The notes under the pieces: model-generated
Seen by the model: only the letters and a program-made list of their open reading frames with translations
Told to the model about the DNA's origin: nothing
Database searches by the model: none
Virus record (IMG/VR): IMGVR_UViG_2606217118_000007
Location: 1 to 13,028 of that record
DNA from: a virus
Lineage: Duplodnaviria > Heunggongvirae > Uroviricota > Caudoviricetes
Reading direction: 5' to 3' (one strand)
Length of the DNA: 13,028 nt
Part shown: positions 1-13,028 of the stretch, one piece after another
Layout: every line of letters begins with the position of its first letter
Numbering within the stretch: position 1 is the stretch's first letter
Made by a program: the position numbers and the translations under genes

Positions 1-606
1 ATGAATAGTCTGCTGCCACCGGGTTCAACTTCACTGGAGCGCCGACTGGCGCAGACCTGTAGCGGGATTTCTGATCTGCAGGTGCCGCTGCGTGACTTGT
101 GGAATCCGGCGACCTGTCCGGTCAGTTTCCTTCCTTATCTCGCCTGGGCGTTCTCTGTGGATCGCTGGGACGAGGGCTGGACAGAAAGCGTCAAGCGCCA
201 GGTGGTGAAGGATGCTTTTTATATTCATCAGCATAAAGGGACCACCAGTGCCGTGCGGCGGGTGGTGGAGCCGTTCGGCTTTCTGATCCGCATTATTGAG
301 TGGTGGCAGACCGGAGAAACACCGGGCACGTTTCGCCTGGATATCGGCGTGCAGGACCAGGGCATCACTGAAGATACCTATCTGGAACTTGAGCGGCTGA
401 TAAGCGATGCCAAACCATGTAGCCGCCATCTGATCGGCATGTCCATCAATCTGCAGACCAGCGGCCCGCATTGGGTGGGGGCTGCCAGCTATCTTGGCGA
501 AGAAATCACGATCTATCCGTATATCAACGAAACAATTATTTCCGGCGGCACCGCGCATGAAGGCGGGGCGGTCCATGTTATTGACACAATGAGAGTGAAT
601 CCATGA
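1..606 (+). CDS. P2-type baseplate assembly protein I (gpI-like); may start at or before the window edge
   Basis: 201-aa ORF with motifs recalled from the phage tail protein I family (LPYLAWAFSVDRWD, HKGT, RVVEPFGFL). Its stop overlaps the tail fiber start (ATGA at 603-606), the usual gene order upstream of H. Confidence 0.7.
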   Translation: MNSLLPPGSTSLERRLAQTCSGISDLQVPLRDLWNPATCPVSFLPYLAWAFSVDRWDEGWTESVKRQVVKDAFYIHQHKGTTSAVRRVVEPFGFLIRIIEWWQTGETPGTFRLDIGVQDQGITEDTYLELERLISDAKPCSRHLIGMSINLQTSGPHWVGAASYLGEEITIYPYINETIISGGTAHEGGAVHVIDTMRVNP

Positions 607-2108
607 GCACAAAATTTTATACCCTGCTGACGGATATTGGCGCGGCGAAACTTGCCAGCGCCGCCGCGCTCGGTGTGCCGCTAAAAATTACCCATATGGC
701 GGTGGGCGATGGCGGTGGAGTATTACCAACGCCGGACGCAAAGCAGACGGCACTGGTAAATGAGAAACGCCGGGCTGCGCTGAATATGCTTTATATCGAC
801 CCGCAGAACAGCAGCCAGATTATTGCCGAACAGGTGATCCCTGAAAACGAGGGCGGTTGGTGGATACGTGAAGTGGGCTTGTTTGATGAGTCCGGGGCAT
901 TGATTGCCGTGGGCAACTGCCCGGAAAGCTATAAGCCGCAACTGGCTGAAGGTAGCGGGCGCACTCAGACCGTGCGCATGGTGCTGATTACCAGCAGCAC
1001 GGACAATATCACCCTGAAAATCGACCCTGCTGTAGTGCTGGCAACCCGCAAGTATGTGGATGACAAGGCACTGGAGCTGAAGGTGTACGTGGATGATCAG
1101 ATGGCAAAACATCTTGCCGCACCGGACCCGCATTCACAGTACGCGCCAAAAGCCAGCCCGACATTTACCGGAACCCCCAAAGCGCCAACGCCAGCGGCGG
1201 GGAATAATACCACGCAGGTTGCGACCACTGCGTTTGTACAGGCGGCACTGACGGCCCTTATTAATGGTGCGCCAGCCACGCTGGACACGCTGAAAGAAAT
1301 AGCCGCAGCCATTAACAATGATCCGAATTTCAGTACCACCATTAACAATGCGCTGGCACTAAAAGCACCGTTGTCGAGTCCGGCACTCACCGGAACGCCA
1401 ACAGCCCCCACGGCGGCACAGTCGGTCAACAATACACAGATTGCCACTACGGCTTTTGTGAAATCAGCGATTGCAGCAATGGTGGGTTCTGCACCCGCGG
1501 CACTGGATACACTGAACGAACTGGCGGCGGCACTGGGGAATGATCCGAACTTTGCCACGACAATGCTTAATGCGCTGGCAGGTAAACAACCGCTGGACAA
1601 TACGCTTACCAATTTGAGTGGGAAGGATGTTGCCGGTCTTCTTGCATACCTTGGTTTGGGAGAAGGTGCTCCAGCTATTGGCGTTCCGTTCTTCTGGCCG
1701 TCCGCTGCAATGCCAAATACTGTAATCGACAGCTGGTCCAGTATGGTGTTTTTGAAGTTCAACGGGGCGAAATTTTCTGCCTCTGATTACCCTGTGCTGG
1801 CAAAAGTGTTTCCTTCGCTGGTATTACCTGAAGCCCGCGGTGATTTCATTCGTATCTGGGATGACGGGCGAGGTGCAGATGGTGGTCGCGAATTATTAAG
1901 CTGGCAGGCAGCAACATCTTTATCGCAATTTGGCGGTAATTATCCAGAAGGGTCCGGCCATGCGATTAATAGTCATGATGGAATTACAGGTAATCAGCCT
2001 GGCTTTTCAAGATTTCAGTTCACCAGTTCTGCTGTAGGGGATGGTGTGAATTTTATTGCCGTCAGACCGCGAAATATTGCATTTAACTTTCTGGTGAGGG
2101 CTAAATAA
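603..2108 (+). CDS. Tail fiber protein (gpH-like), constant N-terminal region plus currently expressed variable C-terminus
   Basis: 501-aa ORF with a P2 H-like N-terminus (MSTKFYTLLTDIGAAKLA), tandem tail-fiber repeats mid-protein, and a C-terminal region of lower GC. The invertase crossover site lies in-frame at codons for LGLGE. Confidence 0.85.
   Translation: MSTKFYTLLTDIGAAKLASAAALGVPLKITHMAVGDGGGVLPTPDAKQTALVNEKRRAALNMLYIDPQNSSQIIAEQVIPENEGGWWIREVGLFDESGALIAVGNCPESYKPQLAEGSGRTQTVRMVLITSSTDNITLKIDPAVVLATRKYVDDKALELKVYVDDQMAKHLAAPDPHSQYAPKASPTFTGTPKAPTPAAGNNTTQVATTAFVQAALTALINGAPATLDTLKEIAAAINNDPNFSTTINNALALKAPLSSPALTGTPTAPTAAQSVNNTQIATTAFVKSAIAAMVGSAPAALDTLNELAAALGNDPNFATTMLNALAGKQPLDNTLTNLSGKDVAGLLAYLGLGEGAPAIGVPFFWPSAAMPNTVIDSWSSMVFLKFNGAKFSASDYPVLAKVFPSLVLPEARGDFIRIWDDGRGADGGRELLSWQAATSLSQFGGNYPEGSGHAINSHDGITGNQPGFSRFQFTSSAVGDGVNFIAVRPRNIAFNFLVRAK
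1158..1592 (+). repeat. Tandem intragenic repeat of about 215 bp (x2) inside the tail fiber gene
   Basis: Two consecutive units of about 71 aa with the same pattern: P(T/A)(F/L)TGTP.AP...NNTQ(V/I)ATTAFV....GAPA.LDTL.E(I/L)AAA..NDPNF.TT..NALA.K.P. Confidence 0.7.
1639..1664. repeat. Left crossover site for the DNA invertase (gix/hix-like 26-bp site) inside the tail fiber gene
   Basis: ttcttgcatacc-tt-ggtttgggagaa has imperfect internal dyad symmetry. Its right half (ttggtttgggagaa) is an exact inverted copy of 3422-3435. Confidence 0.7.
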
Positions 2109-2701
2109 TGAAACCTGTTTTTGATGAAAATGGGCTGGCTACAGTGCCGGGCGATATGCGTTGTTTTTATTATGATGCTGAAACATCTGAGTATACGGGC
2201 TGGTCTGATGAATATATTAATACTGGCGTAAGTATGCCCGCCTGTTCCACTGGTATTGATCCTGGCGAAAACATTCCGGGAAGAGTGGCAGTATTTACAG
2301 GTAAGGGATGGAGCCATGAAGAAGACCACCGCAATGAGACTGTTTACTCAATCGAAAATGGCGCAGCTGTTACAGTGGATTATATCGGTGCCATCAAAGA
2401 CGGTTATGTCACGCTTTCACCGTTAACGCCATACGATAAATGGGATGGTGAGAAATGGGTGACAGATACTGAGGCACAGCATAGCGCCGCAGTAGATGCA
2501 GCAGAAGCACAGCGCCAGTCGCTGATTGATACTGCAATGGCTTCCATCAGTCTGATTCAACTGAAATTGCAGGCCGGACGTAAACTGACGCAGGCAGAAA
2601 CCACCCGACTTAACGCTGTGCTGGATTACATTGACGCGGTGACGGCAACAGATACCAGCACCGCGCCGGATGTCATCTGGCCTGAACTGCCGGAGGCGTA
2701 G
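2108..2701 (+). CDS. Tail fiber assembly protein (gpG/Tfa-like chaperone), currently expressed cassette
   Basis: 197-aa ORF starting 1 nt inside the H stop (TAATG). Its C-terminus ([24 protein letters not shown]) resembles the C-terminus of the reverse-strand paralog. Confidence 0.8.
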   Translation: MKPVFDENGLATVPGDMRCFYYDAETSEYTGWSDEYINTGVSMPACSTGIDPGENIPGRVAVFTGKGWSHEEDHRNETVYSIENGAAVTVDYIGAIKDGYVTLSPLTPYDKWDGEKWVTDTEAQHSAAVDAAEAQRQSLIDTAMASISLIQLKLQAGRKLTQAETTRLNAVLDYIDAVTATDTSTAPDVIWPELPEA

Positions 2702-3131
2702 GCCATTCAATATCTGGCGCACTGGAGGTATCAACCAGTTCCAGTGCGTTCAGATAATCCAGCCACAAATTATATTGCGCCAGTTCCTCACCATTCAGAC
2801 GACCAATAGCCGCTTTACCAGGCCATTGTTTACTGTTCATGTATTCGTTGGCATGGTTAATCAATAATTGCCTCTCTGATTCGGCCTGTTCAATAAGTTC
2901 CTCATGTGATGGTGGAGGTATTTCAACCCATGCAGGATTGCCATAACCGTCCGACCCTCTGATTTTTCCAGTCGGCGGGAATCCTAAAAACTCGGTTGCA
3001 TCCTCCTCGCTAATATCAGTGAATGTGGCGATTTCATCTTCGCTCAATTTATAATCGGAAATTGACGCGGCAGGATAGAATAATGCATTCTTTGGATCAA
3101 ATTTATACATTTCAATCACCCCGCTATCCAT
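2673..3131 (-). CDS. Alternative tail fiber assembly protein (Tfa'), silent-orientation cassette
   Basis: 152-aa ORF convergent with and overlapping tfa by 29 bp. Its C-terminus ([26 protein letters not shown]) parallels that of the forward Tfa, and it follows the alternative fiber C-terminus. Confidence 0.75.
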
Positions 3132-3434
3132 CTGTATGCGACTGGCATACTTCCAACCTGTGAAACAGAAAACCCCTGCCTCGATTTTCGCAACACATTT
3201 ACGGCCCCTTTATTTGCTCCTGTATCTGCTGCACAAACGATAACTTCGAAATCGTCATACGGAAATGGTATCGGGAATAAAATGTTAGTTTGACTTGATG
3301 TCATAGCAAATCCCCGCTGTATTATTCTCCCCGACGGGTCTCTATTCCATCCTGTCCCAGATGTCCATTCTGACATACTAGGTATCTGATTTTCCCCTGT
3401 TCCCACATTCCGTTTTGCCGCTTCTCCCAAACCA
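3116..3434 (-). CDS. Alternative tail-fiber C-terminal cassette (Hv'), promoterless and without its own start in this orientation
   Basis: The reverse-strand frame passes through the right crossover site in the same frame as H (NVGLGE versus YLGLGE), so inversion would fuse H codons 1 to about 354 to this roughly 106-aa tail. The tracked ORF 3116-3475 runs past the site into non-coding DNA. Confidence 0.65.
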
Positions 3435-3447
3435 ACGTTTATGAAAA
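3422..3447. repeat. Right crossover site for the DNA invertase (gix/hix-like)
   Basis: ttctcccaaacc-aa-cgtttatgaaaa is the inverted counterpart of 1639-1664 and lies about 55 bp upstream of the invertase start. Confidence 0.7.
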
Positions 3448-3502
3448 TGCAGAGATAACGGCTAACTGGCATCATCTCCGGTTTTTATTCAGGGGGATGA
3501 TC

Positions 3503-4069
3503 ATGCTTATTGGCTATGTACGCGTGTCAACAAATGACCAGAACACCGATTTGCAACGCAATGCACTGAACTGTGCGGGATGTGAGCGGATTTTTGAGGA
3601 TAAAATCAGTGGCACCAAGTCCGACAGACCGGGGCTGAAAAAGCTGCTCAGGACACTATCGGCAGGAGACACGCTGGTTGTCTGGAAGCTGGACAGACTG
3701 GGGCGCAGTATGCGGCATCTTGTTACGCTGATAGAAGAGCTGCGCCAGCGTGGCGTGAATTTCCGAAGCCTGACTGACAGTATTGATACCAGCACCCCAA
3801 TGGGCCGTTTCTTTTTTCATGTCATGGGTGCCCTGGCTGAAATGGAACGCGAACTGATAGTTGAACGTACCAGGGCGGGGCTGGCTGCAGCTCGTGCTAA
3901 AGGCAGAGTAGGTGGACGCCGTCCTAAGTTGACCAGCGAACAGTGGGCACAGATTGGGCGTTTACTCGAGGCCGGAGAATCAAGACAGCGTATTGCACTG
4001 ATTTTTGATGTAGGCGTTTCTACCATTTATCGAAAATTTCCGGCAAATAAGAACAATAAATCTCCCTGA
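3503..4069 (+). CDS. Serine-recombinase DNA invertase (Gin/Hin/Pin/Cin family)
   Basis: The N-terminus MLIGYVRVSTNDQ carries the catalytic Ser of the resolvase/invertase family, with a C-terminal HTH-like region (SRQRIALIFDVGVSTIYRKF). The GGGGGA ribosome-binding site is spaced for the ATG at 3503 rather than the ORF-track start at 3497. Confidence 0.85.
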   Translation: MLIGYVRVSTNDQNTDLQRNALNCAGCERIFEDKISGTKSDRPGLKKLLRTLSAGDTLVVWKLDRLGRSMRHLVTLIEELRQRGVNFRSLTDSIDTSTPMGRFFFHVMGALAEMERELIVERTRAGLAAARAKGRVGGRRPKLTSEQWAQIGRLLEAGESRQRIALIFDVGVSTIYRKFPANKNNKSP

Positions 4070-4117
4070 ATCAGCTTTATTTTGATTATCCCTGAAAGCA
4101 GACAAATACCGTCATTT

Positions 4118-4135
4118 TGTGTGAATAACGGTACA
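4118..4135 (+). promoter_or_regulatory. Putative Ogr-dependent late promoter element (TGT-N12-ACA) upstream of the sheath operon
   Basis: tgt-gtgaataacggt-aca lies about 80-95 bp upstream of the FI start codon, matching the P2 late-promoter activator dyad. This short motif could occur by chance. Confidence 0.45.
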
Positions 4136-4211
4136 ACTGCGCTTAGCTGTTTGTCAGGCACAATCACTTCAACATAGGGCGAAGCCTAATCCAATCAGGA
4201 GGTTCGCCACT

Positions 4212-5384
4212 ATGGCTCAGGATTACCACCACGGGGTGCGCGTTGTTGAAGTCAACGAAGGCACCCGATCCATTACCACGGTGAGCACCGCCATCGTGGG
4301 TATGGTCTGCACGGGCGATGATGCCGATGCAAAAATGTTTCCTCTTAATAAACCCGTGCTGATCACTGATGTGCTGACTGCCAGCGGTAAAGCGGGTGAG
4401 TCAGGCACGCTGGCTCGTTCGCTGGATGCCATCGCTGACCAGGCAAAACCCGTGACCGTTGTTGTGCGTGTGCCGCAGGGTGAAACGGAAGAAGAAACCA
4501 CGACCAATATCATCGGAGCAGTGACCGCTGAAGGTAAAAAAACAGGCATGAAAGCCCTGTTATCTGCCCAGTCACAGCTCGGCGTTAAACCGCGCATTCT
4601 CGGCGTGCCAGGTCACGACACGAAGGCGGTAGCTACTGAGTTGCTGAGCGTGGCGCAAAGCCTGCGTGGATTTGCTTACCTGTCAGCGTATGGTTGCAAG
4701 ACAGTGCAGGAAGCAATCACTTACCGTGAAAACTTCAGTCAGCGTGAAGGAATGCTGATCTGGCCCGACTTTACTGGCTGGGACACGGTGCTGAATGCCG
4801 AAGCAACGGCTTATGCCACCGCCCGTGCGCTTGGTCTGCGCGCCAAAATTGACGAGCAGACCGGATGGCACAAAAGCCTGTCCAACGTGGGCGTTAACGG
4901 TGTCACCGGAATTTCTGCTGATGTGTTCTGGGATCTGCAGGACCCGGCAACCGATGCGGGACTGCTGAACCAGAACGACGTCACCACCCTTATCCGCAAA
5001 GACGGTTTTCGCTTCTGGGGTTCCCGCTGCCTGAGTGATGACCCGCTCTTTGCCTTCGAAAACTACACCCGCACGGCGCAGGTGCTGACGGACACGATGG
5101 CAGAAGCGCACATGTGGGCGGTGGATAAACCGCTGAATCCGTCGCTGGCCCGCGACATTATCGAGGGTATCCGCGCCAAAATGCGCAGCCTGGTCAGTCA
5201 GGGCTATCTCATTGGTGGTGATTGCTGGCTGGATGAGTCGGTGAACGACAAAGACACGCTGAAAGCCGGAAAACTCACCATCGACTACGACTACACGCCA
5301 GTGCCGCCACTTGAAAACCTGATGCTGCGTCAGCGCATCACCGATCAGTACCTGGTGAATTTCTCCAGCCAGGTCAGCGCGTAA
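4212..5384 (+). CDS. Contractile tail sheath protein (gpFI-like)
   Basis: 390-aa ORF with a strong ribosome-binding site (AGGAGG) and a P2 FI-like N-terminus ([17 protein letters not shown]), in the conserved position before the tube gene. Confidence 0.85.
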
Positions 5385-5393
5385 GGGGACAAC

Positions 5394-5909
5394 ATGGCTT
5401 TACCACGCAAATTAAAACACCTGAACCTGTTTAATGACGGGAACAACTGGCAGGGGATCGTTGAGTCGCTGACGCTGCCGAAATTTACCCGCAAATATGA
5501 GAAGTATCGCGGCGGCGGAATGCCGGGTGCAGTGGATGTGGATCTGGGGCTGGATGACGGCGCACTGGATACGGAATTTTCCATTGGTGGTACTGAACTG
5601 CTGCTGTTTAAGCAGATGGGCAAAGCCACGGTGGATGGTATCCAGTTGCGCTTTACCGGCTCTATCCAGCGTGACGATACCGGGGAAGTGCAGGCCGTGG
5701 AGCTTGTGGTGCGTGGACGTCACAAAGAAGTGGATTCCGGCGAGTGGAAGACGGGCGAAAGCAACACCACCAAAGTGACCAGTACCAACAGCTACGCGAA
5801 GCTGACTATAAATGGTGAGGTGCTCTATGAAGTGGACCTTATCAACATGGTGGAAATTGTGGACGGTGTGGACCTGATGGAAGCGCACCGCAACGCCCTC
5901 GGCCTCTGA
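5394..5909 (+). CDS. Tail tube protein (gpFII-like)
   Basis: 171-aa ORF immediately after the sheath gene with ribosome-binding site AAGGGGA, the size and position typical of P2 FII. Confidence 0.8.
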   Translation: MALPRKLKHLNLFNDGNNWQGIVESLTLPKFTRKYEKYRGGGMPGAVDVDLGLDDGALDTEFSIGGTELLLFKQMGKATVDGIQLRFTGSIQRDDTGEVQAVELVVRGRHKEVDSGEWKTGESNTTKVTSTNSYAKLTINGEVLYEVDLINMVEIVDGVDLMEAHRNALGL

Positions 5910-5920
5910 TGTATCTGAAC

Positions 5921-5938
5921 GGCGCGGGATACCGCGCC
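5921..5938 (+). promoter_or_regulatory. GC-rich stem-loop in the FII-E intergenic region (possible attenuator or mRNA-stability element)
   Basis: Perfect 7-bp stem ggcgcgg/ccgcgcc with loop gata, but not followed by a T-run. Confidence 0.3.
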
Positions 5939-5963
5939 AGAACCCAATTTACAGGACAGCAAA

Positions 5964-6266
5964 ATGAGCGATAAGCAGACTGAAAAGACTATTCAACTGG
6001 ATACCCCCATCAAGCGCGGTAAAACAGAAATCACCGAAATTGTGCTGCGTAAACCGCAGTCCGGTGCGCTGCGCGGTACACGCCTGCAGGCCATTATGGA
6101 TATGGATGTGAACGCGATGATGACCGTGATCCCCCGCATCTCCAGTCCGGCACTGACTGCACAGGAAATTGCAGAGATGGACCCGGCAGATCTCACTGCC
6201 ATGTCGGTTGAGGTTGTCACTTTTTTGTTGAAGAAGTCGGTGCTTGCCGGTTTACCGACAGCCTGA
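5964..6266 (+). CDS. Tail assembly chaperone gpE (zero-frame product)
   Basis: 100-aa ORF between the tube and tape measure genes, containing the slippery heptamer near its 3' end. Confidence 0.75.
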   Translation: MSDKQTEKTIQLDTPIKRGKTEITEIVLRKPQSGALRGTRLQAIMDMDVNAMMTVIPRISSPALTAQEIAEMDPADLTAMSVEVVTFLLKKSVLAGLPTA

Positions 6267-6400
6267 CGGTTGACGATCTGGTGGCTGATATCGCCACCAT
6301 CTTTCACTGGCCGCCATCCGTTACTGACGTTATGCCGCTGACCGAAGTGCTGGAATGGCGGTATAAAGCGATTCAGAGAAGCGGGGCCAACGATGAGTGA
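5964..6400 (+). CDS. Tail assembly chaperone gpE+E' made by programmed -1 ribosomal frameshift at T_TTT_TTG (6221-6227)
   Basis: The heptamer t ttt ttg sits in the zero frame of E. The -1 frame is open from 6227 to a TGA at 6398-6400, which overlaps the start of the tape measure gene, as in P2 E/E'. Confidence 0.7.
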
Positions 6401-9400
6401 TAATAACCTGCGCCTGCAGGTCATTCTTAATGCGGTTGACAAACTCACCCGCCCATTCCGTGCTGCACAGGCCAGTTCGAAAGAGCTGGCTGGCGCAATT
6501 CAGAATACCCGAAACAGCCTCAAAGAACTGAATAAGCAGGCTGGCAGAATTGATGAATTTCGCAAGACGCGCTCGCAACTAGCCATAACAGCCAACAACC
6601 TGAACGCAGCCCGCGAAGAGGCGGCAAAACTCGCCACACAATTTGCTGCCACTAACAGGCCAACCGCCGCGCAGGCAAAGTTATTCAGTCAGGCCAAAAC
6701 ACGAGTACAGGAACTTCAGCAGACCTATAACGGCTTGTTGGGGGCGGTCCAGAGACAACGTCAGGCACTTAAAGAATCAGGGATTGATACCAGACAACTC
6801 AGTAGTGCCCAGCGAGAACTTAAGAAAAATGCCGAAGAAACTCGTCAGGCACTGGAGGGCCAGCAAAAAGCACTTAAACGTCTGGGTGAACAACAGGCAC
6901 GGATGAACGCTGCCAGAGAACAATACTCAAGACGGCTTGAAGTGCGCGATCGCATCGCAGGAGCCGGAGCCACCACCACGGCTGCAGGGCTGGCAATGGG
7001 CGCGCCAGTGATGGCGGCGGTAAAAAGCTATACCAGCATGGAAGATGCCATGAAAGGTGTGGCAAAGCAGGTCAATGGTCTGCGTGACGATAATGGCAAC
7101 CGCACTGCGCGTTTTTACGAAATGCAGGATGCCATCAAAGCTGCCAGTGAACAGCTGCCAATGGAAAACGGTGCTGTGGACTTCGCCGCACTGGTTGAAG
7201 GTGGTGCGCGCATGAATGTGGCAAACCCTGACGGCAGCTGGGAGGACCAGAAACGTGACCTGCTGGCCTTCGCCAGTACGGCAGCAAAGGCGGCAACAGC
7301 CTTTGAGCTGCCAGCGGATGAACTGTCAGAAAGTCTGGGGAAAATCGCCCAGCTCTACAAAATACCAACCCGCAATATTGAACAGCTCGGTGATGCGCTG
7401 AACTATCTGGATGATAACGCCATGTCGAAAGGGGCAGACATCATTGATGTCATGCAACGCCTGGGCGGTGTGGCTGATCGTCTGGATTATCGTAAAGCGG
7501 CGGCGCTGGGTTCCACCTTCCTGACACTGGGGGCTGCGCCGGAGGTCGCTGCCAGTGCTGCCAACGCGATGGTGCGTGAATTGTCCATTGCCACCATGCA
7601 AAGCAAGAGTTTCTTTGAAGGGATGAATCTGCTGAAACTCAATCCTGAAGTGATTGAAAAGCAGATGACGAAGGATGCGATGGGAACTATCCAGCGTGTG
7701 CTGGAGAAGGTGAACGCACTGCCGCAGGACAAGCGTCTGTCTGCCATGACCATGTTGTTTGGTAAAGAGTTTGGCGATGACGCGGCGAAACTGGCAAACA
7801 ACCTGCCGGAACTACAGCGCCAGCTAAAACTGACAGCGGGCAATGATGCGCTCGGTTCCATGCAGAAAGAATCCGACATCAACAAGGACTCACTTTCTGC
7901 TCAGTGGTTGCTGGTTAAAACCGGAGCGCAGAATACCTTCAGCAGCCTGGGCGAAACGCTGCGCCAGCCGCTGATGGATATTCTGTACACGGTGAAAAGC
8001 GTTACGGGAGCGTTGCGTCGCTGGGTGGAAGCTAACCCGGAACTGACGGGCACACTGATGAAAGTAGCCGCTATTGTGGCTGCGGTTACCGTAGGCCTAG
8101 GCACCCTGGCTGTGGCGCTGGCTGCAGTGCTGGGGCCGCTGGCAGTCATCCGTCTGGGATTCTCTGTGCTGGGCATCAAAACGTTACCTTCCGTTATGGC
8201 AGCAGTAACACGAACCAGCAGCGCGTTGTCCTGGCTGGCTGGCGCACCACTGGCACTGCTGCGACGCGGGCTTGCTTCATCGGGCAACGCCGCAGGTTTA
8301 CTTACTGCGCCGTTGTCGTCTTTGCGCCGTACGGCATCACTGACGGGAAATGTCCTGAAAACTGTAGCAGGTGCGCCGGTTGCACTATTGCGGTCTGGAT
8401 TATCCGCTTTACGTGCTGTTGCTGTGATGTTTATGAATCCTCTGGCGGTACTGCGCGGCGGGCTGGCTGCCGCAGGCACGGTGCTGCGAGTACTGGCATC
8501 TGGTCCACTGGCGATGTTGCGCGTTGCCCTGTATGCCGTATCTGGTCTGTTAGGTGCTTTGCTCAGTCCGATAGGTCTTGTGGTTACTGCACTGGCGGGT
8601 GTGGCACTGGTTGTCTGGAAATACTGGCAACCCATCACCGCATTTCTCGGTGGCGTGGTGGAAGGATTCAAAGCGGCGGCAGGTCCCATCAGTGCAGCGT
8701 TCGAACCGCTTAAGCCTGTGTTCCAGTGGATTGGTGACAAAGTGCAGGCGCTGTGGGGCTGGTTTACTGATCTGCTGACGCCCGTTAAGTCGACCTCTGC
8801 CGAACTGCAGAGCGCAGCGGCAATGGGGCGACGATTCGGGGAGGCACTGGCGGAAGGGCTGAATATGGTTATGCATCCGCTGGACTCCCTGAAATCTGGC
8901 GTTTCCTGGTTGCTGGATAAACTCGGCATTGTCAGTAAAGAGGCTGCAAAGGCGAAACTGCCGGAAAGCGTGACGCGTCAGCAACCTGCGACGGTGAATG
9001 CAGACGGTAAAGTGATGATGCCATCGGGTGGTTTTCCGTCATGGGGATATGGCTTTGCGGGGATGTATGACAGCGGCGGCTATATCCCGCGTGGGCAGTT
9101 TGGCATCGTCGGTGAAAACGGGCCGGAAATTGTTAACGGCCCGGCAAATGTGACCAGCCGGAGAAATACAGCTGCACTGGCTGCCGTTGTTGCCGGAATG
9201 ATGGGCGTTGCTGCCGCGCCAGCAGAGCTTCCACCGTTGCACCCTTTGGCACTTCCCGCGAAAGGTGGAGAAGCAATTGTGAGTCGCGCAGCCACTGTGC
9301 CGCTCGTTCAACGGATTGAGGCACCGACGCAGATCATCATTCAGACGCAGCCAGGACAAAGTGCGCAGGATATTGCGCGGGAGGTGGCACGCCAGCTTGA

Positions 9401-9470
9401 TGAACGTGAACGCAGGCTGAAGGCAAAAGCCAGGAGTAACTACAGCGATCAGGGGGGATACGACGCATGA
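6393..9470 (+). CDS. Tail tape measure protein (gpT-like)
   Basis: 1025-aa ORF with a coiled-coil-like N-terminal third, repeated hydrophobic LxxLR-type segments in the central region, and the conserved position after E/E'. Its stop overlaps the U start (ATGA). Confidence 0.85.
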   Translation: MSDNNLRLQVILNAVDKLTRPFRAAQASSKELAGAIQNTRNSLKELNKQAGRIDEFRKTRSQLAITANNLNAAREEAAKLATQFAATNRPTAAQAKLFSQAKTRVQELQQTYNGLLGAVQRQRQALKESGIDTRQLSSAQRELKKNAEETRQALEGQQKALKRLGEQQARMNAAREQYSRRLEVRDRIAGAGATTTAAGLAMGAPVMAAVKSYTSMEDAMKGVAKQVNGLRDDNGNRTARFYEMQDAIKAASEQLPMENGAVDFAALVEGGARMNVANPDGSWEDQKRDLLAFASTAAKAATAFELPADELSESLGKIAQLYKIPTRNIEQLGDALNYLDDNAMSKGADIIDVMQRLGGVADRLDYRKAAALGSTFLTLGAAPEVAASAANAMVRELSIATMQSKSFFEGMNLLKLNPEVIEKQMTKDAMGTIQRVLEKVNALPQDKRLSAMTMLFGKEFGDDAAKLANNLPELQRQLKLTAGNDALGSMQKESDINKDSLSAQWLLVKTGAQNTFSSLGETLRQPLMDILYTVKSVTGALRRWVEANPELTGTLMKVAAIVAAVTVGLGTLAVALAAVLGPLAVIRLGFSVLGIKTLPSVMAAVTRTSSALSWLAGAPLALLRRGLASSGNAAGLLTAPLSSLRRTASLTGNVLKTVAGAPVALLRSGLSALRAVAVMFMNPLAVLRGGLAAAGTVLRVLASGPLAMLRVALYAVSGLLGALLSPIGLVVTALAGVALVVWKYWQPITAFLGGVVEGFKAAAGPISAAFEPLKPVFQWIGDKVQALWGWFTDLLTPVKSTSAELQSAAAMGRRFGEALAEGLNMVMHPLDSLKSGVSWLLDKLGIVSKEAAKAKLPESVTRQQPATVNADGKVMMPSGGFPSWGYGFAGMYDSGGYIPRGQFGIVGENGPEIVNGPANVTSRRNTAALAAVVAGMMGVAAAPAELPPLHPLALPAKGGEAIVSRAATVPLVQRIEAPTQIIIQTQPGQSAQDIAREVARQLDERERRLKAKARSNYSDQGGYDA

Positions 9471-9952
9471 TGATGGTGCTGGGATTGTACGTGTTTATGC
9501 TGCGCACCGTTCCGTATCAGGAACTGCAGTATCAACGCAGCTGGCGACATGCGGCAAACAGCCGGGTAAACCGTCGTCCGTCCACGCAGTTTCTGGGACC
9601 GGAAAACGACATGCTGACGCTTTCCGGTGTTCTTATGCCGGAGATAACAGGCGGCAGGCTGTCGTTGCTGGCACTGGAGCAGATGGCAGAACAGGGGAAA
9701 GCATGGCCCCTGATTGAAGGCAGCGGCACGATTTACGGCATGTATGTGATTGAGGGACTGAATCAGACTAAAACGGAGTTTTTCCGCGACGGTATGCCGC
9801 GCAGGATTGAGTTCACCCTTTCGCTAAAACGGGTGGATGAATCCCTGTCCGATATGTTCGGTGATCTCAGTACTCAACTGAATAATCTGCAGGACACGGC
9901 AACGTCTGCCTTAAGCGATATCAGTAAAACGGTGGGAGGGCTGCTGTCGTGA
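9467..9952 (+). CDS. Tail protein gpU-like
   Basis: 161-aa ORF translationally coupled to T and D, with the size and position of P2 U. Confidence 0.75.
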   Translation: MMMVLGLYVFMLRTVPYQELQYQRSWRHAANSRVNRRPSTQFLGPENDMLTLSGVLMPEITGGRLSLLALEQMAEQGKAWPLIEGSGTIYGMYVIEGLNQTKTEFFRDGMPRRIEFTLSLKRVDESLSDMFGDLSTQLNNLQDTATSALSDISKTVGGLLS

Positions 9953-11049
9953 ATTTCAGCTCTGAACTGCTTAACAAAGGAAACAAAACTCCCGCATTCA
10001 GCATCAGTATTGAGGGGAAGGATATCACCACTGTGCTGGATAACCGCCTGATGAGTCTGACGCTGACGGACAATCGGGGCTTTGAAGCGGACCAGCTTGA
10101 TCTGGAGCTGGACGACGCCGACGGAAAAATCGTGCTGCCGCGCCGTGGTGCGGTCATTACGCTGGCGCTGGGCTGGAAGGGGCAGCCGCTTTTCCCGAAA
10201 GGGGCATTCACGGTGGACGAGATTGAACACACTGGCGCACCGGACCGCCTGACTATCCGGGCGCGAAGTGCTGATTTTCGGGAAACGCTGAATACCCGCC
10301 GTGAAAAATCGTGGCATAACACCACCATCGGGGAAGTGGTGAAGGAAATAGCCGCGCGGCACAAGCTGAAGATGGCACTGGGTAAAGACCTGTCGGATAA
10401 GCCCGTGGAGCATATAGACCAGACTAATGAGAGTGACGGCAGTTTTTTGATGCGGCTGGCGCGCCAGTACGGTGCCATTGCATCGGTGAAAAATGGCAAT
10501 CTGTTATTCATCCGGCAGGGACAGGGCAAAAGCGCCAGCGGTAAACCACTGCCGGTGATTACTATCACACGTAAGGACGGCGACAGTCACCGCTTTACCC
10601 TGGCAGATCGCGGAGCTTACACGGGGGTAATTGCCAGCTGGTTGCATACCCGCGAACCCGCGAAGAAAGAAAGCACTACGGTGAAGCGTAAGCGCAGGAC
10701 TAAGAAGCAGAAGAAAGAGCCGGAAGCGAAGCAGGGCGATTACCTGGTGGGGACGGATGAAAACGTGCTGGTACTTAATCGCACTTATGCCAACCGGAGC
10801 AACGCTGAACGGGCAGCGAAAATGCAGTGGGAACGCCTGCAACGTGGCGTTGCGTCATTCTCGCTACAACTGGCGGAAGGGCGGGCAGATCTCTACACGG
10901 AAATGCCTGTGAAGGTCAGTGGTTTTAAACAGCCGATAGATGATGCGGAATGGACCATTACGACTCTGACACATACCGTCAGCCCGGATAACGGTTTTAC
11001 AACCAGTATTGAACTCGAAGTGAAGATTGATGATCTTGAAATGGAATAA
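9949..11049 (+). CDS. Tail protein / late control protein gpD-like (GTG start)
   Basis: 366-aa ORF with a GTG start overlapping the U stop (GTGA), at the conserved position before ogr. It contains a lysine/arginine-rich stretch (KRKRRTKKQKKEPE). Confidence 0.8.
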   Translation: MNFSSELLNKGNKTPAFSISIEGKDITTVLDNRLMSLTLTDNRGFEADQLDLELDDADGKIVLPRRGAVITLALGWKGQPLFPKGAFTVDEIEHTGAPDRLTIRARSADFRETLNTRREKSWHNTTIGEVVKEIAARHKLKMALGKDLSDKPVEHIDQTNESDGSFLMRLARQYGAIASVKNGNLLFIRQGQGKSASGKPLPVITITRKDGDSHRFTLADRGAYTGVIASWLHTREPAKKESTTVKRKRRTKKQKKEPEAKQGDYLVGTDENVLVLNRTYANRSNAERAAKMQWERLQRGVASFSLQLAEGRADLYTEMPVKVSGFKQPIDDAEWTITTLTHTVSPDNGFTTSIELEVKIDDLEME

Positions 11050-11117: not shown

Positions 11118-11336
11118 ATGATGAATTGTCCAAAGTGTGGTCATGCGGCACACACAAGGAGCAGTTTTCAAGTAACTGAAAGCACTAAAGAGCGTTACTG
11201 CCAGTGCCAAAATATTAACTGCGGGAGTACTTTTGTTACCCATGAAACAGTGGTCCGGTTTATTGTGACACCCGCACTGATTGCTACTGCTCCTCCACAT
11301 CCATTGCCAGGTGGTCAGGGGCATATGAATTTTTGA
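11118..11336 (+). CDS. ogr: Ogr/Delta-family zinc-finger late transcription activator
   Basis: MMNCPKCGHAAHTRSS...KERYCQCQNINCGSTF has the Cys4 pattern and KERY.QCQN.NC motif of P2 Ogr. The ribosome-binding site aaggtaggg lies 8 nt upstream of the ATG at 11118, so the ORF-track start at 11073 is probably a non-translated in-frame extension. Confidence 0.8.
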   Translation: MMNCPKCGHAAHTRSSFQVTESTKERYCQCQNINCGSTFVTHETVVRFIVTPALIATAPPHPLPGGQGHMNF

Positions 11337-11343
11337 GAAAGAG

Positions 11344-11368
11344 AACCTGCTACGGCAGGTTTTTATTC
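11344..11368. terminator. Intrinsic terminator between convergent ogr and the cargo gene
   Basis: Stem aacctgc / gcaggtt with loop tacg, followed by tttttatt on the + strand. It overlaps the stop codon of the reverse gene. Confidence 0.6.
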
Positions 11369-11845
11369 ATCTGGGATCTCACCCGTTTCAAGAAAATGTA
11401 TAAAGCCAGGCTCATCTATGATGATTGTGCCTTTCATCCTGGCTGCCGATACTTTTGATGGGCCTGCATTGTAACCGCAACAGAGCATCTGAAGGCTTTG
11501 GGTTACAGAGGTTCTTACCGTTAATCCTTGTTCATTCGCCTTATCAACCAATCTTTCTTTATCTGCTTTCTTAAATCCGGTGAAACACACATCGAATGTA
11601 TTTTTTTTCGGACCAGACTGCTTGGTGAGATGTGAGTAGTTTTCGGGGAGGAATGACGCGCACTCCTGAATGGCTTGTTCTGGTGAATCGTACTGTTTAA
11701 GAATGCGGTCTTTTCGGAAGGTTTTTATTCGATCGGTGTTCTTACAAATGCCCTGTATATGATTTTCGCTATAACTGATGCTCTGTATAGAGTGAACACC
11801 GATACGACCATTTGCATTGATGTAAACAAAGTGAAGTTCTTCCAT
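11363..11845 (-). CDS. Hypothetical accessory (moron-like) protein with WYL-like N-terminal motif and BRCT-like C-terminal domain
   Basis: 160-aa ORF with ribosome-binding site aaagagg 6 nt before the ATG. The N-terminus YINANGRIGVHSIQSISY...ICKNTDRIKTFRKDRIL fits the WYL-domain hallmark (R.FR.DRI). The C-terminus VCFTGF...ERL...GL.V...V....L.CGYNAGPSK...A...G..IIDE..F fits a BRCT fold. It is oriented opposite to the phage late genes and is AT-richer than them. Confidence 0.6.
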   Translation of the reverse strand: MEELHFVYINANGRIGVHSIQSISYSENHIQGICKNTDRIKTFRKDRILKQYDSPEQAIQECASFLPENYSHLTKQSGPKKNTFDVCFTGFKKADKERLVDKANEQGLTVRTSVTQSLQMLCCGYNAGPSKVSAARMKGTIIIDEPGFIHFLETGEIPDE

Positions 11846-11871
11846 GTGAAACCTCTTTGCATGATTTCAAG

Positions 11872-11924: not shown

Positions 11925-11958
11925 TAAAGAAAAAGGGGCTACGCTTTCACGTAACCCC
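11925..11958 (-). terminator. Intrinsic terminator downstream of ssrA
   Basis: On the minus strand, a 9-bp stem ggggttacg / cgtagcccc (one G-U pair) is followed by a U-run, immediately 3' of the tmRNA CCA end. Confidence 0.55.
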
Positions 11959-11968
11959 TTGATTTATT

Positions 11969-12331
11969 TGGTGGAGCTGGCGGGAGTTGAACCCGCGTCC
12001 GAAATTCCTACATCCTCGGTACTACATGCTTAGTCAGTCTTTACATTCGCTTGCCAGCTGCGGACGGACACGCCACTAACAAACTAGCCTGATTAAGTTT
12101 TAACGCTTCAACCCCAGGCAGGGCTTCCACGCGATCTCTTTTGGGTTTGACCTCTCTTGATCCCCGTCCTAAGAGCGGAGGCTAGGGAGAGAGGGCTCTA
12201 AGCAGGTTATTAAGCTGCTAAAGCGTAGTTTTCGTCGTTTGCGACTATTTTTTGCGGCTTTTTACGAGGCCAACCGCCCCTCGGCATGCACCTTGGGTTT
12301 CGCAAATCCCGTCGAATCCAGAATCAGCCCC
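11969..12331 (-). ncRNA. ssrA: tmRNA (transfer-messenger RNA, SsrA), 363 nt
   Basis: The reverse complement begins GGGGCTGATTCTGGATTCGACGGG, includes the tag reading-frame region (GCAAACGACGAAAACTACGCTTTAGCAGCTTAA), and ends GGTTCAACTCCCGCCAGCTCCACCA. This matches my memory of E. coli ssrA and its position downstream of smpB. Confidence 0.9.
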
Positions 12332-12545: not shown

Positions 12546-13028
12546 TTAACGGTGGGCGTTTTTCATGATACGCGCTTTATCCACCTGCCATTCGCGTTCT
12601 TTGATATCTGAACGTTTATCATGCTGTTTCTTACCTTTGGCGACGCCGATTTTCACTTTGCACCAGGCATTTTTCCAGTACAGGGAGAGCGCCACTACGG
12701 TATAGCCTTCTCGATTGACGCGACCGTACAATGAGTCCAGTTCGCGCTGGTTGAGAAGTAACTTGCGGGTACGGGTAGGATCGCACACCACATGCGTGGA
12801 GGCCACAGCCATTGGCGTGATGTTAGCGCCAAACAGAAATGCCTCTCCGTCACGCAGAAGGACGTAGCTGTCGCTGATATTGGCTTTTCCTGCACGCAGG
12901 GATTTAACCTCCCAGCCTTGCAGGGCAAGTCCCGCCTCGAACTCTTCTTCGATAAAGTATTCGTGCCGGGCGCGCTTGTTAAGCGCGATGGTCGCTGAAC
13001 CAGGTTTATGTGCTTTTTTCTTCGTCAT
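12546..13028 (-). CDS. smpB: SsrA-binding protein SmpB
   Basis: Complete 160-aa ORF ([30 protein letters not shown]...) matching enterobacterial SmpB as I recall it. Its start codon is at the last bases of the window, upstream of and co-oriented with ssrA. Confidence 0.9.

Follow-up and report, generated by a model that had tools for sequence, protein, structure and literature searches.

The stretch of DNA analysed here (hereafter, the window) comprises 13,028 nucleotides of the Caudoviricetes record IMGVR_UViG_2606217118_000007 and holds the end of a 186/P2-like prophage integrated in ssrA, the host gene for the transfer-messenger RNA (tmRNA); at that end we found a functional accessory gene belonging to the lysogeny side of the prophage, whose product combines an N-terminal WYL fold with a C-terminal BRCT fold. 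The WYL-BRCT open reading frame (ORF) occupies positions 11363..11845 of the minus strand and encodes 160 amino acids (aa), with an ATG start and a TAA stop at 11363-11365, and is preceded by its own ribosome-binding site, AAGAGG, read from the sequence (11852..11857, minus strand; 6 nt 5' of the ATG). The gene converges with that of the ogr/Delta-type late activator (11118..11336, plus strand), which in turn follows gene D of the P2/186-like late region (9949-11049, plus strand). The stop codons of ogr and of the WYL-BRCT gene are 26 bp apart, and between the two lies a hairpin common to both genes (11344-11361), which structure passed the terminator-like scan on the minus strand and on the plus strand consists of a stem and then TTTTATT. 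Upstream, and in the same orientation, are ssrA (11969..12331, minus strand) and then smpB (12546-13028, minus strand) at the end of the window. A sequence-only reading of the same DNA had described the ORF, its convergence with ogr and its ribosome-binding site in these same terms, and had judged the gene by eye to be AT-rich, which impression was upheld by computation: the GC content of the gene is 41.8%, versus 53.6% for the late genes in positions 1-11049 of the window and 45.7% for ogr, while at third codon positions (GC3) the figures are 41% for this gene and 61% for gene D.

We consider the ORF to be a genuine gene under strong purifying selection since the ratio of nonsynonymous to synonymous substitutions (dN/dS) is about 0.06—0.055 against the copy in phage Cartapus and 0.061 against that in Plesiomonas—and since the length of exactly 160 codons is unchanged in orthologues of ~70% identity, whose synonymous sites are saturated.

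The limits of the prophage were obtained by alignment with the attP regions of the free phages Cartapus and Yersinia phage MLG42, in which the last ~45 nt of ssrA are accompanied by the same terminator hairpin, by the same leader, and then by a copy of the WYL-BRCT gene. The attR core therefore corresponds to the 3' end of ssrA (11969..12013, the end being approximate; minus strand), which sequence is identical to the attP of the related phages; the crossover region is 11969-~12013, and the WYL-BRCT gene is the final gene of the prophage, as the sequence-only reading had supposed. The strong hairpin plus T-run terminator located directly after ssrA (11933..11960, minus strand) lies on the phage P' arm, so that the ssrA terminator of the lysogen comes from the phage; and because that terminator is present in the attP of the free phages, integration leaves the host tmRNA gene with a phage-borne 3' end as well as a phage-borne terminator. 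The 5' leader of the WYL-BRCT gene contains, moreover, three TGGCGRCA repeats—at 11873-80 (plus strand), 11902-09 (minus strand), and 11913-20 (minus strand)—conserved in Cartapus and MLG42, the closest being 28 bp away from the start codon. Two further copies are found at the attL end of a prophage of the same type, that of E. coli USMARC-51688 (L012, 34338-34356), in which prophage we counted 14 sites versus 4.3 expected, a number reached by no shuffle. These repeats are probably Int arm-type sites of the attP arms, those at attR belonging to the P' arm. The record NC_049342.1 ('Escherichia phage 500465-1') extends beyond attR into smpB, ratA, rnfH, bamE, and recN; and, because it continues into those host genes, it represents a mis-delimited prophage and not a packaged genome.

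Domain architecture and relation to known proteins

The AlphaFold2 model of the whole 160-aa protein had a mean predicted local distance difference test score (pLDDT) of 92.2 and a predicted template modelling score (pTM) of 0.53, which latter value implies that the model does not fix how the two domains are oriented to each other. The WYL domain (residues 1-54; 11684..11845, minus strand) is a five-stranded Sm/SH3-like beta-barrel that contains the motif K-T-F-R-K-D-R-I. Two short helices (residues 55-62 and 67-73) and a lower-confidence linker (residues 55-84 as a whole; 11594..11683, minus strand; mean pLDDT 70 for residues 71-80) then lead to the BRCT domain (residues 85-155; 11381..11593, minus strand), which displays the beta-alpha-beta-beta-alpha-beta-alpha fold, invariant T89, G90, and K131, and a conserved LETGEIP tail. 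When residues 1-76 were modelled separately (pLDDT 92.5) and searched by fold against 48,164 chains, WYL-domain proteins accounted for 7 of the 12 best matches, with PafBC at 6.3, the single-stranded DNA (ssDNA)-bound CapW at 6.0, BrxR at 5.8 and 5.7, and DriD at 5.4-5.2, followed by generic Sm/Hfq barrels.

For the sequence comparisons we collected 120 homologues, of which 47 were aligned, and scanned a further set of 55 longer relatives. The Pfam WYL model was matched by 4 of the 47 close relatives (best 1.5e-5) and by 23 of the 55 longer ones (best 1.2e-8); the Pfam BRCT model by 35 and 45, respectively. The best matches of the family profile in the PDB were the BRCTs of RFC1 (3e-5) and of Thermus filiformis LigA (4.7e-5), while both single-sequence and profile searches of the N-terminal domain against the PDB returned nothing significant (PafBC at E 2.4). 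The WYL assignment accordingly rests on the fold search plus the Pfam matches of the relatives, the direct sequence and profile searches of the query having given none. Both folds proposed from the letters alone were thus recovered by the profile and structure searches—the N-terminal one without a Pfam match in the query itself, and the C-terminal one with a Pfam score below threshold in the query but with fold and family-profile matches to RFC1 and LigA—and we conclude that the protein consists of an N-terminal WYL fold and a C-terminal BRCT fold of the LigA/RFC1 DNA-binding subgroup. The absence of any helix-turn-helix (HTH) or enzymatic domain, likewise proposed beforehand, also held: neither Pfam nor the model, where the WYL barrel already begins at residue 3, showed an HTH; no WCX domain was found, the C-terminal domain being the BRCT; and Pfam, the profile search, and the model revealed no catalytic domain in the 160 aa. 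The product is a small cytoplasmic, non-catalytic two-domain protein.

Characterised WYL domains are mainly ssDNA-sensing switches on HTH regulators, while a few serve helicases or Cas13d partners as accessory domains. With the winged HTH-WYL-WCX regulators (DriD, PafBC, CapW, BrxR) the present protein has the WYL fold in common; it lacks, however, their HTH, and is thus not a sequence-specific DNA regulator, while the BRCT stands where these regulators have their WCX dimerisation domain, which contributes one half of the crevice for ssDNA in DriD and CapW. That BRCT has, in turn, the same fold as those of LigA, RFC1, and the B subunit of the T5-like split ligases, but whereas in LigA and RFC1 the domain is joined to a ligase or to a clamp-loader AAA+ module, here its sole partner is the WYL domain.

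The likeness to LigA has left its mark on the public records, where the protein is named 'DNA ligase' in PHROG 2561 and in the RefSeq entries of 500465-1 and PHL101, and 'putative exonuclease' in Cartapus. That the gene should encode a ligase or an exonuclease, or be a decayed ligA fragment, is nevertheless hardly credible, since the resemblance to LigA is confined to the BRCT, with no adenylation, oligonucleotide-binding (OB), Zn, or helix-hairpin-helix domain and no nuclease fold; since the N-terminus is a WYL barrel; and since the intact unit is kept under the purifying selection described above. An NAD+-dependent ligase was accordingly rejected, there being no nucleotidyltransferase/OB domain with KxDG and just the BRCT resembling LigA (residues ~596-660 of 1dgs), and an exonuclease was rejected for want of a nuclease fold within the 160 aa. 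PHROG 2561, which matches the query from end to end (2e-77), is a catalogue entry only, and its 'DNA ligase' label was carried over from BRCT similarity; the misannotation of these proteins in phage records is due for correction. Among the defence families of PADLOC, the C-terminal ~70 residues of the query, i.e., the BRCT, matched positions 335-406 of the 411-aa PDC-S48 profile (1.8e-7); we rejected membership in that family because the match is limited to the BRCT, in the query as in the longer relatives, the rest of PDC-S48 being unrelated.

The WYL-BRCT architecture itself was catalogued by Makarova et al. (2014). In the literature on WYL, BRCT, P2-like prophages, and phage defence we found no functional study of such proteins, and the sequence-only reading had not recognised the fusion as characterised; P2-focused papers looked through for these terms, including PMC13586616 and PMC9122126, discuss neither the WYL nor the BRCT domain. 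What is newly added here is the synteny of these genes with the lysogeny operon, the architecture and the PHROG family being already known.

Distribution and genomic context of the family

An exhaustive profile search returned 2721 clusters (at 50% identity) with E<=1e-3, 205 of them with E<=1e-30. The best 150 matches were mostly stand-alone proteins of ~155-185 aa, most of which matched nearly the whole profile; other members among those 150 had additional copies of WYL or BRCT, a hydrophobic segment at the N-terminus—judged by eye to be probably membrane-spanning—or a ~200-aa domain of unrecognised fold. This last domain, recognisable by the motifs DGYAAGW, ALDIK, WTQG, and a C-terminal Q-x-E/D-F...LQTG, is fused at the N- or C-terminal side in some relatives (residues 166-405 of P0151, 176-380 of P0128, and 1-186 of P0122) and encoded by an adjacent gene in others (L025, 5502-6095, and L058, 3545-4033, both on the plus strand). 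It matched nothing in Pfam or the PDB, and neither the window nor the complete E. coli prophage L012 contains it; we note that it may be a functional partner of the WYL-BRCT protein.

The neighbourhood of the gene was compared in 48 loci, each from a different species. A CI-type repressor gene was co-oriented and located one or two genes upstream in 16 of the 48 loci, gpD was convergent downstream in 11, and an integrase gene stood within three genes in 7, in five of which it was downstream. In the circular phage of the E. coli/Yersinia lineage cI is succeeded by int, (variable cargo), attP, and WYL-BRCT, all of the same orientation, and the series ends facing ogr/D. In the Xenorhabdus prophage and a metagenomic one (DRR386106) the succession is cI, WYL-BRCT, and int, the gaps measuring 2-35 nt; Mannheimia PHL101 and Vibrio PV94 have the WYL-BRCT gene directly after cI; in Burkholderia phages a regulator and a hypothetical gene precede the WYL-BRCT gene, which ends against gene D; and in Pseudomonas and other P2-like phages the gene is likewise found directly after cI and often ahead of int. 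WYL-BRCT proteins are, in short, encoded in the lysogeny (repressor-integrase) context of P2-like phages. The upstream repressors are of two kinds, either the 186 type (Phage_CI_repr, mostly with Phage_CI_C) or an HTH joined to an S24 peptidase, so that the conserved feature is the transcriptional context and not one repressor partner. All-against-all BLAST of the three neighbours on either side over the 48 loci revealed no conserved partner gene, the sole clusters being those of CI, gpD, gpU, Int, and Ogr. Just upstream of the WYL-BRCT gene, the prophages of Acerihabitans (L019, 4096-4992) and Rahnella (L021, 4042-4980) encode a repressor of ~300 aa; that of L019 has two Phage_CI_repr HTH matches and then a single CI_C, i.e., it is a duplicated 186-type CI, and the L021 protein is 57% identical.

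This context invites the explanation that the protein is a DNA-damage sensor tuning the lysogeny switch, in which circumstance the WYL domain would sense ssDNA arising from damage and the partner of the BRCT would be CI, Int, or some host repair factor; the protein would in this way modulate the induction or excision of the prophage, or the choice between lysis and lysogeny, beside or without the SOS response. The tight association with cI and int in many phages speaks in its favour, as do the overlap of the E. coli leader with the probable Int arm sites and the response to damage-derived ssDNA that is common to all the WYL regulators characterised in this fold class (DriD, PafBC, CapW). The two unrelated repressor types, among them self-cleaving S24 repressors that already sense RecA*, argue, for their part, against a specific CI partner; and lysogeny is managed without this gene in P2, in 186, and in the majority of the P2-like prophages of E. 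coli. Homologues occur, furthermore, in Vibrio phage SSP002 and outside phages, some of them in integrase-bearing islands beside Mrr, McrB-N/HNH, or AbiGi-like genes. We regard such a role as rather unlikely.

Among complete E. coli genomes the WYL-BRCT gene is present in 176 of 5426, and an ogr of the type found here in 182, whereas a related gene D (gpD) is present in 1312. Among the matches listed that lack this ogr type the homology ends at the end of gene D, and in the two ybjL-site prophages that we examined ogr is the last gene, with none beyond. Given the similar low counts of the two genes relative to gpD and the end of homology after D, we conclude that ogr, the WYL-BRCT gene, and the ssrA-type attP constitute one AT-rich variable segment, in line with the earlier view that the gene is not part of the conserved P2 late region.

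According to a 2026 survey of P2-like prophages (PMC13586616), the int-att and int-primase intervals are minor defence hotspots. The ogr-attR position occupied in E. coli is not among the hotspots described (gpA-gpQ, tail-gene Z/fun, int-att, and int-primase); in other phages the WYL-BRCT gene, being located between cI and int, falls within the int-primase interval of that survey. Other slots of this prophage type hold cargo of their own. The gpA-gpQ (old/tin) hotspot of L012 (24600-25457) contains a gene for a DUF6236 protein, with no PADLOC match, beside a DinI-family gene. Across attP, between int and attL, there is a second variable cargo slot, which encodes a 343-aa hypothetical protein in L012 (33303-34334) and a 401-aa protein annotated as RES/NAD+-binding in phage Cartapus (L003, 3508-4713), neither of which was matched by a Pfam or PADLOC model. 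At the opposite side of the window, finally, a serine recombinase (3497-4069, plus strand; Resolvase and HTH_7, 2e-53) is encoded beside tail-fibre and fibre-assembly genes, and the neighbouring ORFs 603-2108, 2108-2701, and 2673-3131 (minus strand) include opposed assembly ORFs; a dip in GC content to 41-47% is also present, and the region looks like a candidate Cin/Hin-type invertible host-range segment.

Conserved residues and putative ligand surfaces

Nine columns were invariant in the 47 aligned sequences, namely Y8, T42, T89, G90, F91, L99, L121, G124, and K131, and F43, R44, and D46 were nearly so. On the side of the WYL domain, DriD, CapW, and PafBC bind ssDNA through Y and R residues on the barrel. 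Motif and spacing, with no superposition, suggest a correspondence of Y8 with DriD Y168, of H/Y29 with Y192, of K/R41 with R204, of F43 with W206, and of R44 with R207, so that a part of the ssDNA-contacting surface may have its counterpart in this family.

The apparent retention of part of the WYL ligand platform in a protein devoid of the usual output domain would suit a counter-defence decoy, i.e., an HTH-less WYL protein made by the lysogen that takes up the ssDNA signal or covers resected ends, with the consequence that host WYL repressors such as CapW and BrxR would fail to derepress, at induction, the cyclic-oligonucleotide-based antiphage signalling system (CBASS), the bacteriophage exclusion (BREX) system, and the like. 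Where CapW controls CBASS, ssDNA turns the system on, and prophage induction is then blocked by a factor of about 100 (PMC11662680). A position within the lysogeny operon would suit production of the decoy before induction. Known sponges, however, are usually early lytic genes, and the proposal is purely inferential; the dissociation constant (Kd) of CapW for ssDNA is, furthermore, micromolar, so that stoichiometric sequestration would require a high expression, and the BRCT would have no explanation unless the protein were thereby targeted to ends. Such a decoy strikes us as improbable.

On the side of the BRCT, T89-G90 after strand 1 and K131 at the start of helix 2 occupy the phosphate-pocket positions, and the S/T-G ... 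K motif defined for BRCTs (PMC10386641) is present. In an alignment with yeast RFC1 the motifs F-T-G and A-G-P-x-K coincide, and K131 falls one residue past Lys-208, which residue lines the cavity for the 5' end in the isolated RFC1 BRCT, a domain that binds recessed 5'-phosphorylated DNA with a Kd of ~10 nM (PMC9293004). The similarity of this BRCT to those of LigA and RFC1, and to that of the BRCT-bearing B subunit of the T5-like split ligases, together with the occurrence of the same architecture in Vibrio phage SSP002, could be taken to mean that the protein is a helper for the phage's own DNA, protecting or aligning cos ends or nicks and recruiting LigA or the clamp machinery for genome closure or for replication intermediates. 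But in P2-like phages the gene sits in the leftward lysogeny transcript and not among the early or replication genes, most relatives do without it, and the joining of cos precedes phage transcription, so that a newly infecting genome cannot supply the protein for it; we hold a role of this kind to be improbable.

A proposed lysogen-side binder of DNA junctions

The reading that we favour, which as a whole package is a guess by analogy that falls somewhat short of an even chance, is that of a non-catalytic binder of ssDNA/5'-phosphate junctions, expressed in the lysogen for exclusion, defence, or damage sensing. The protein would be made in the lysogen and/or while lysogeny is being established. 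Its WYL domain would probably bind a few nucleotides of ssDNA, as do DriD, CapW, and PafBC; its BRCT would probably bind a 5'-phosphorylated duplex end or a nick, after the manner of the isolated RFC1 BRCT; and both domains together would recognise ss/dsDNA junctions, gaps, or nicks. The candidate targets would be resected breaks, replication intermediates, and, on phage DNA entering the cell, cos ends, whether annealed or free. The lysogen would benefit if the protein occupied (or reported) such intermediates on superinfecting or competing DNA, the exclusion or defence operating by binding and not by cleavage, and a host partner might be recruited through the BRCT or through the conserved LETGEIP tail.

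Precedents for the position, if not for the protein, are found among the exclusion genes of P2-like phages. In PMC9122126, old and tin are described as non-essential genes that are expressed from the P2 prophage and exclude other phages, and glo of K139 has been described as an immunity or exclusion gene of the control region; the WYL-BRCT gene resembles these in being a non-essential, variably present gene on the lysogenic side of a P2-like prophage. The minor defence hotspots at int-att and int-primase, and the proximity of some non-phage homologues to Mrr, McrB-N/HNH, or AbiGi-like genes, also speak for the favoured reading. Old (a nuclease/ATPase), Tin, and Glo (a periplasmic protein) have, nevertheless, no relation in sequence or fold to WYL-BRCT proteins.

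Several observations weigh against a lysogen-expressed junction binder. With regard to the domains, the Pfam BRCT score of the query (PF00533) was 19.5 bits against a cut-off of 21.3 (E 1e-3), hence sub-threshold, and the Pfam WYL model (PF13280) was not matched at E<=10. With regard to the ligands, the equivalents of the DriD arginines R176 and R178, two of the ligand arginines of DriD and CapW, are not conserved in the enterobacterial clade, in which H18 stands where other members have R; and the ssDNA crevice of DriD and CapW is completed by the WCX domain, which is missing here, so that any mode of ssDNA binding must differ from theirs. In the full RFC complex the BRCT-DNA contact was, moreover, unlike that of the isolated-domain model, and no measurable difference was found between 5'-phosphate and 5'-OH ends (PMC9293004). 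With regard to expression, integration severs the gene from the cI-int promoter; the strong terminator at the 3' end of ssrA stands between ssrA and the gene, which bears on expression in the lysogen; and in the 123-bp leader we found no sigma-70 consensus promoter. Any transcripts might arise by ssrA read-through, from a weak or regulated promoter within the P' arm, or for the most part while the genome is circular. Constitutive binding to nicks or gaps could, in addition, harm the host, and no PADLOC family covers the protein, just its BRCT resembling PDC-S48.

A more general proposition would be that WYL-BRCT proteins are widespread HTH-less, stand-alone, non-catalytic sensors of DNA lesions or ends that are kept in the repressor operons of temperate phages, that recognise an ssDNA/5'-phosphate junction, and that either exclude incoming cos-ended or replicating DNA through their occupation of nicks or gaps or blunt immune derepression of the CapW/BrxR type at induction, which proposition, in that full extent, we deem unlikely to hold.

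The family brings together a sensor domain and, alone with it, a BRCT of the ligase/RFC1 type, beside the repressor in temperate phages of many proteobacterial genera. Should intermediates of DNA damage or invasion in fact be bound, these proteins would offer a simple two-domain model for the reading of DNA-end signals by a prophage; and a non-enzymatic mechanism of exclusion or counter-defence might thereby be revealed. Were either outcome of the more general proposition true, a new mechanism of conflict between prophage, host, and phage would be at hand, in which a WYL sensor would have a BRCT domain as its output.

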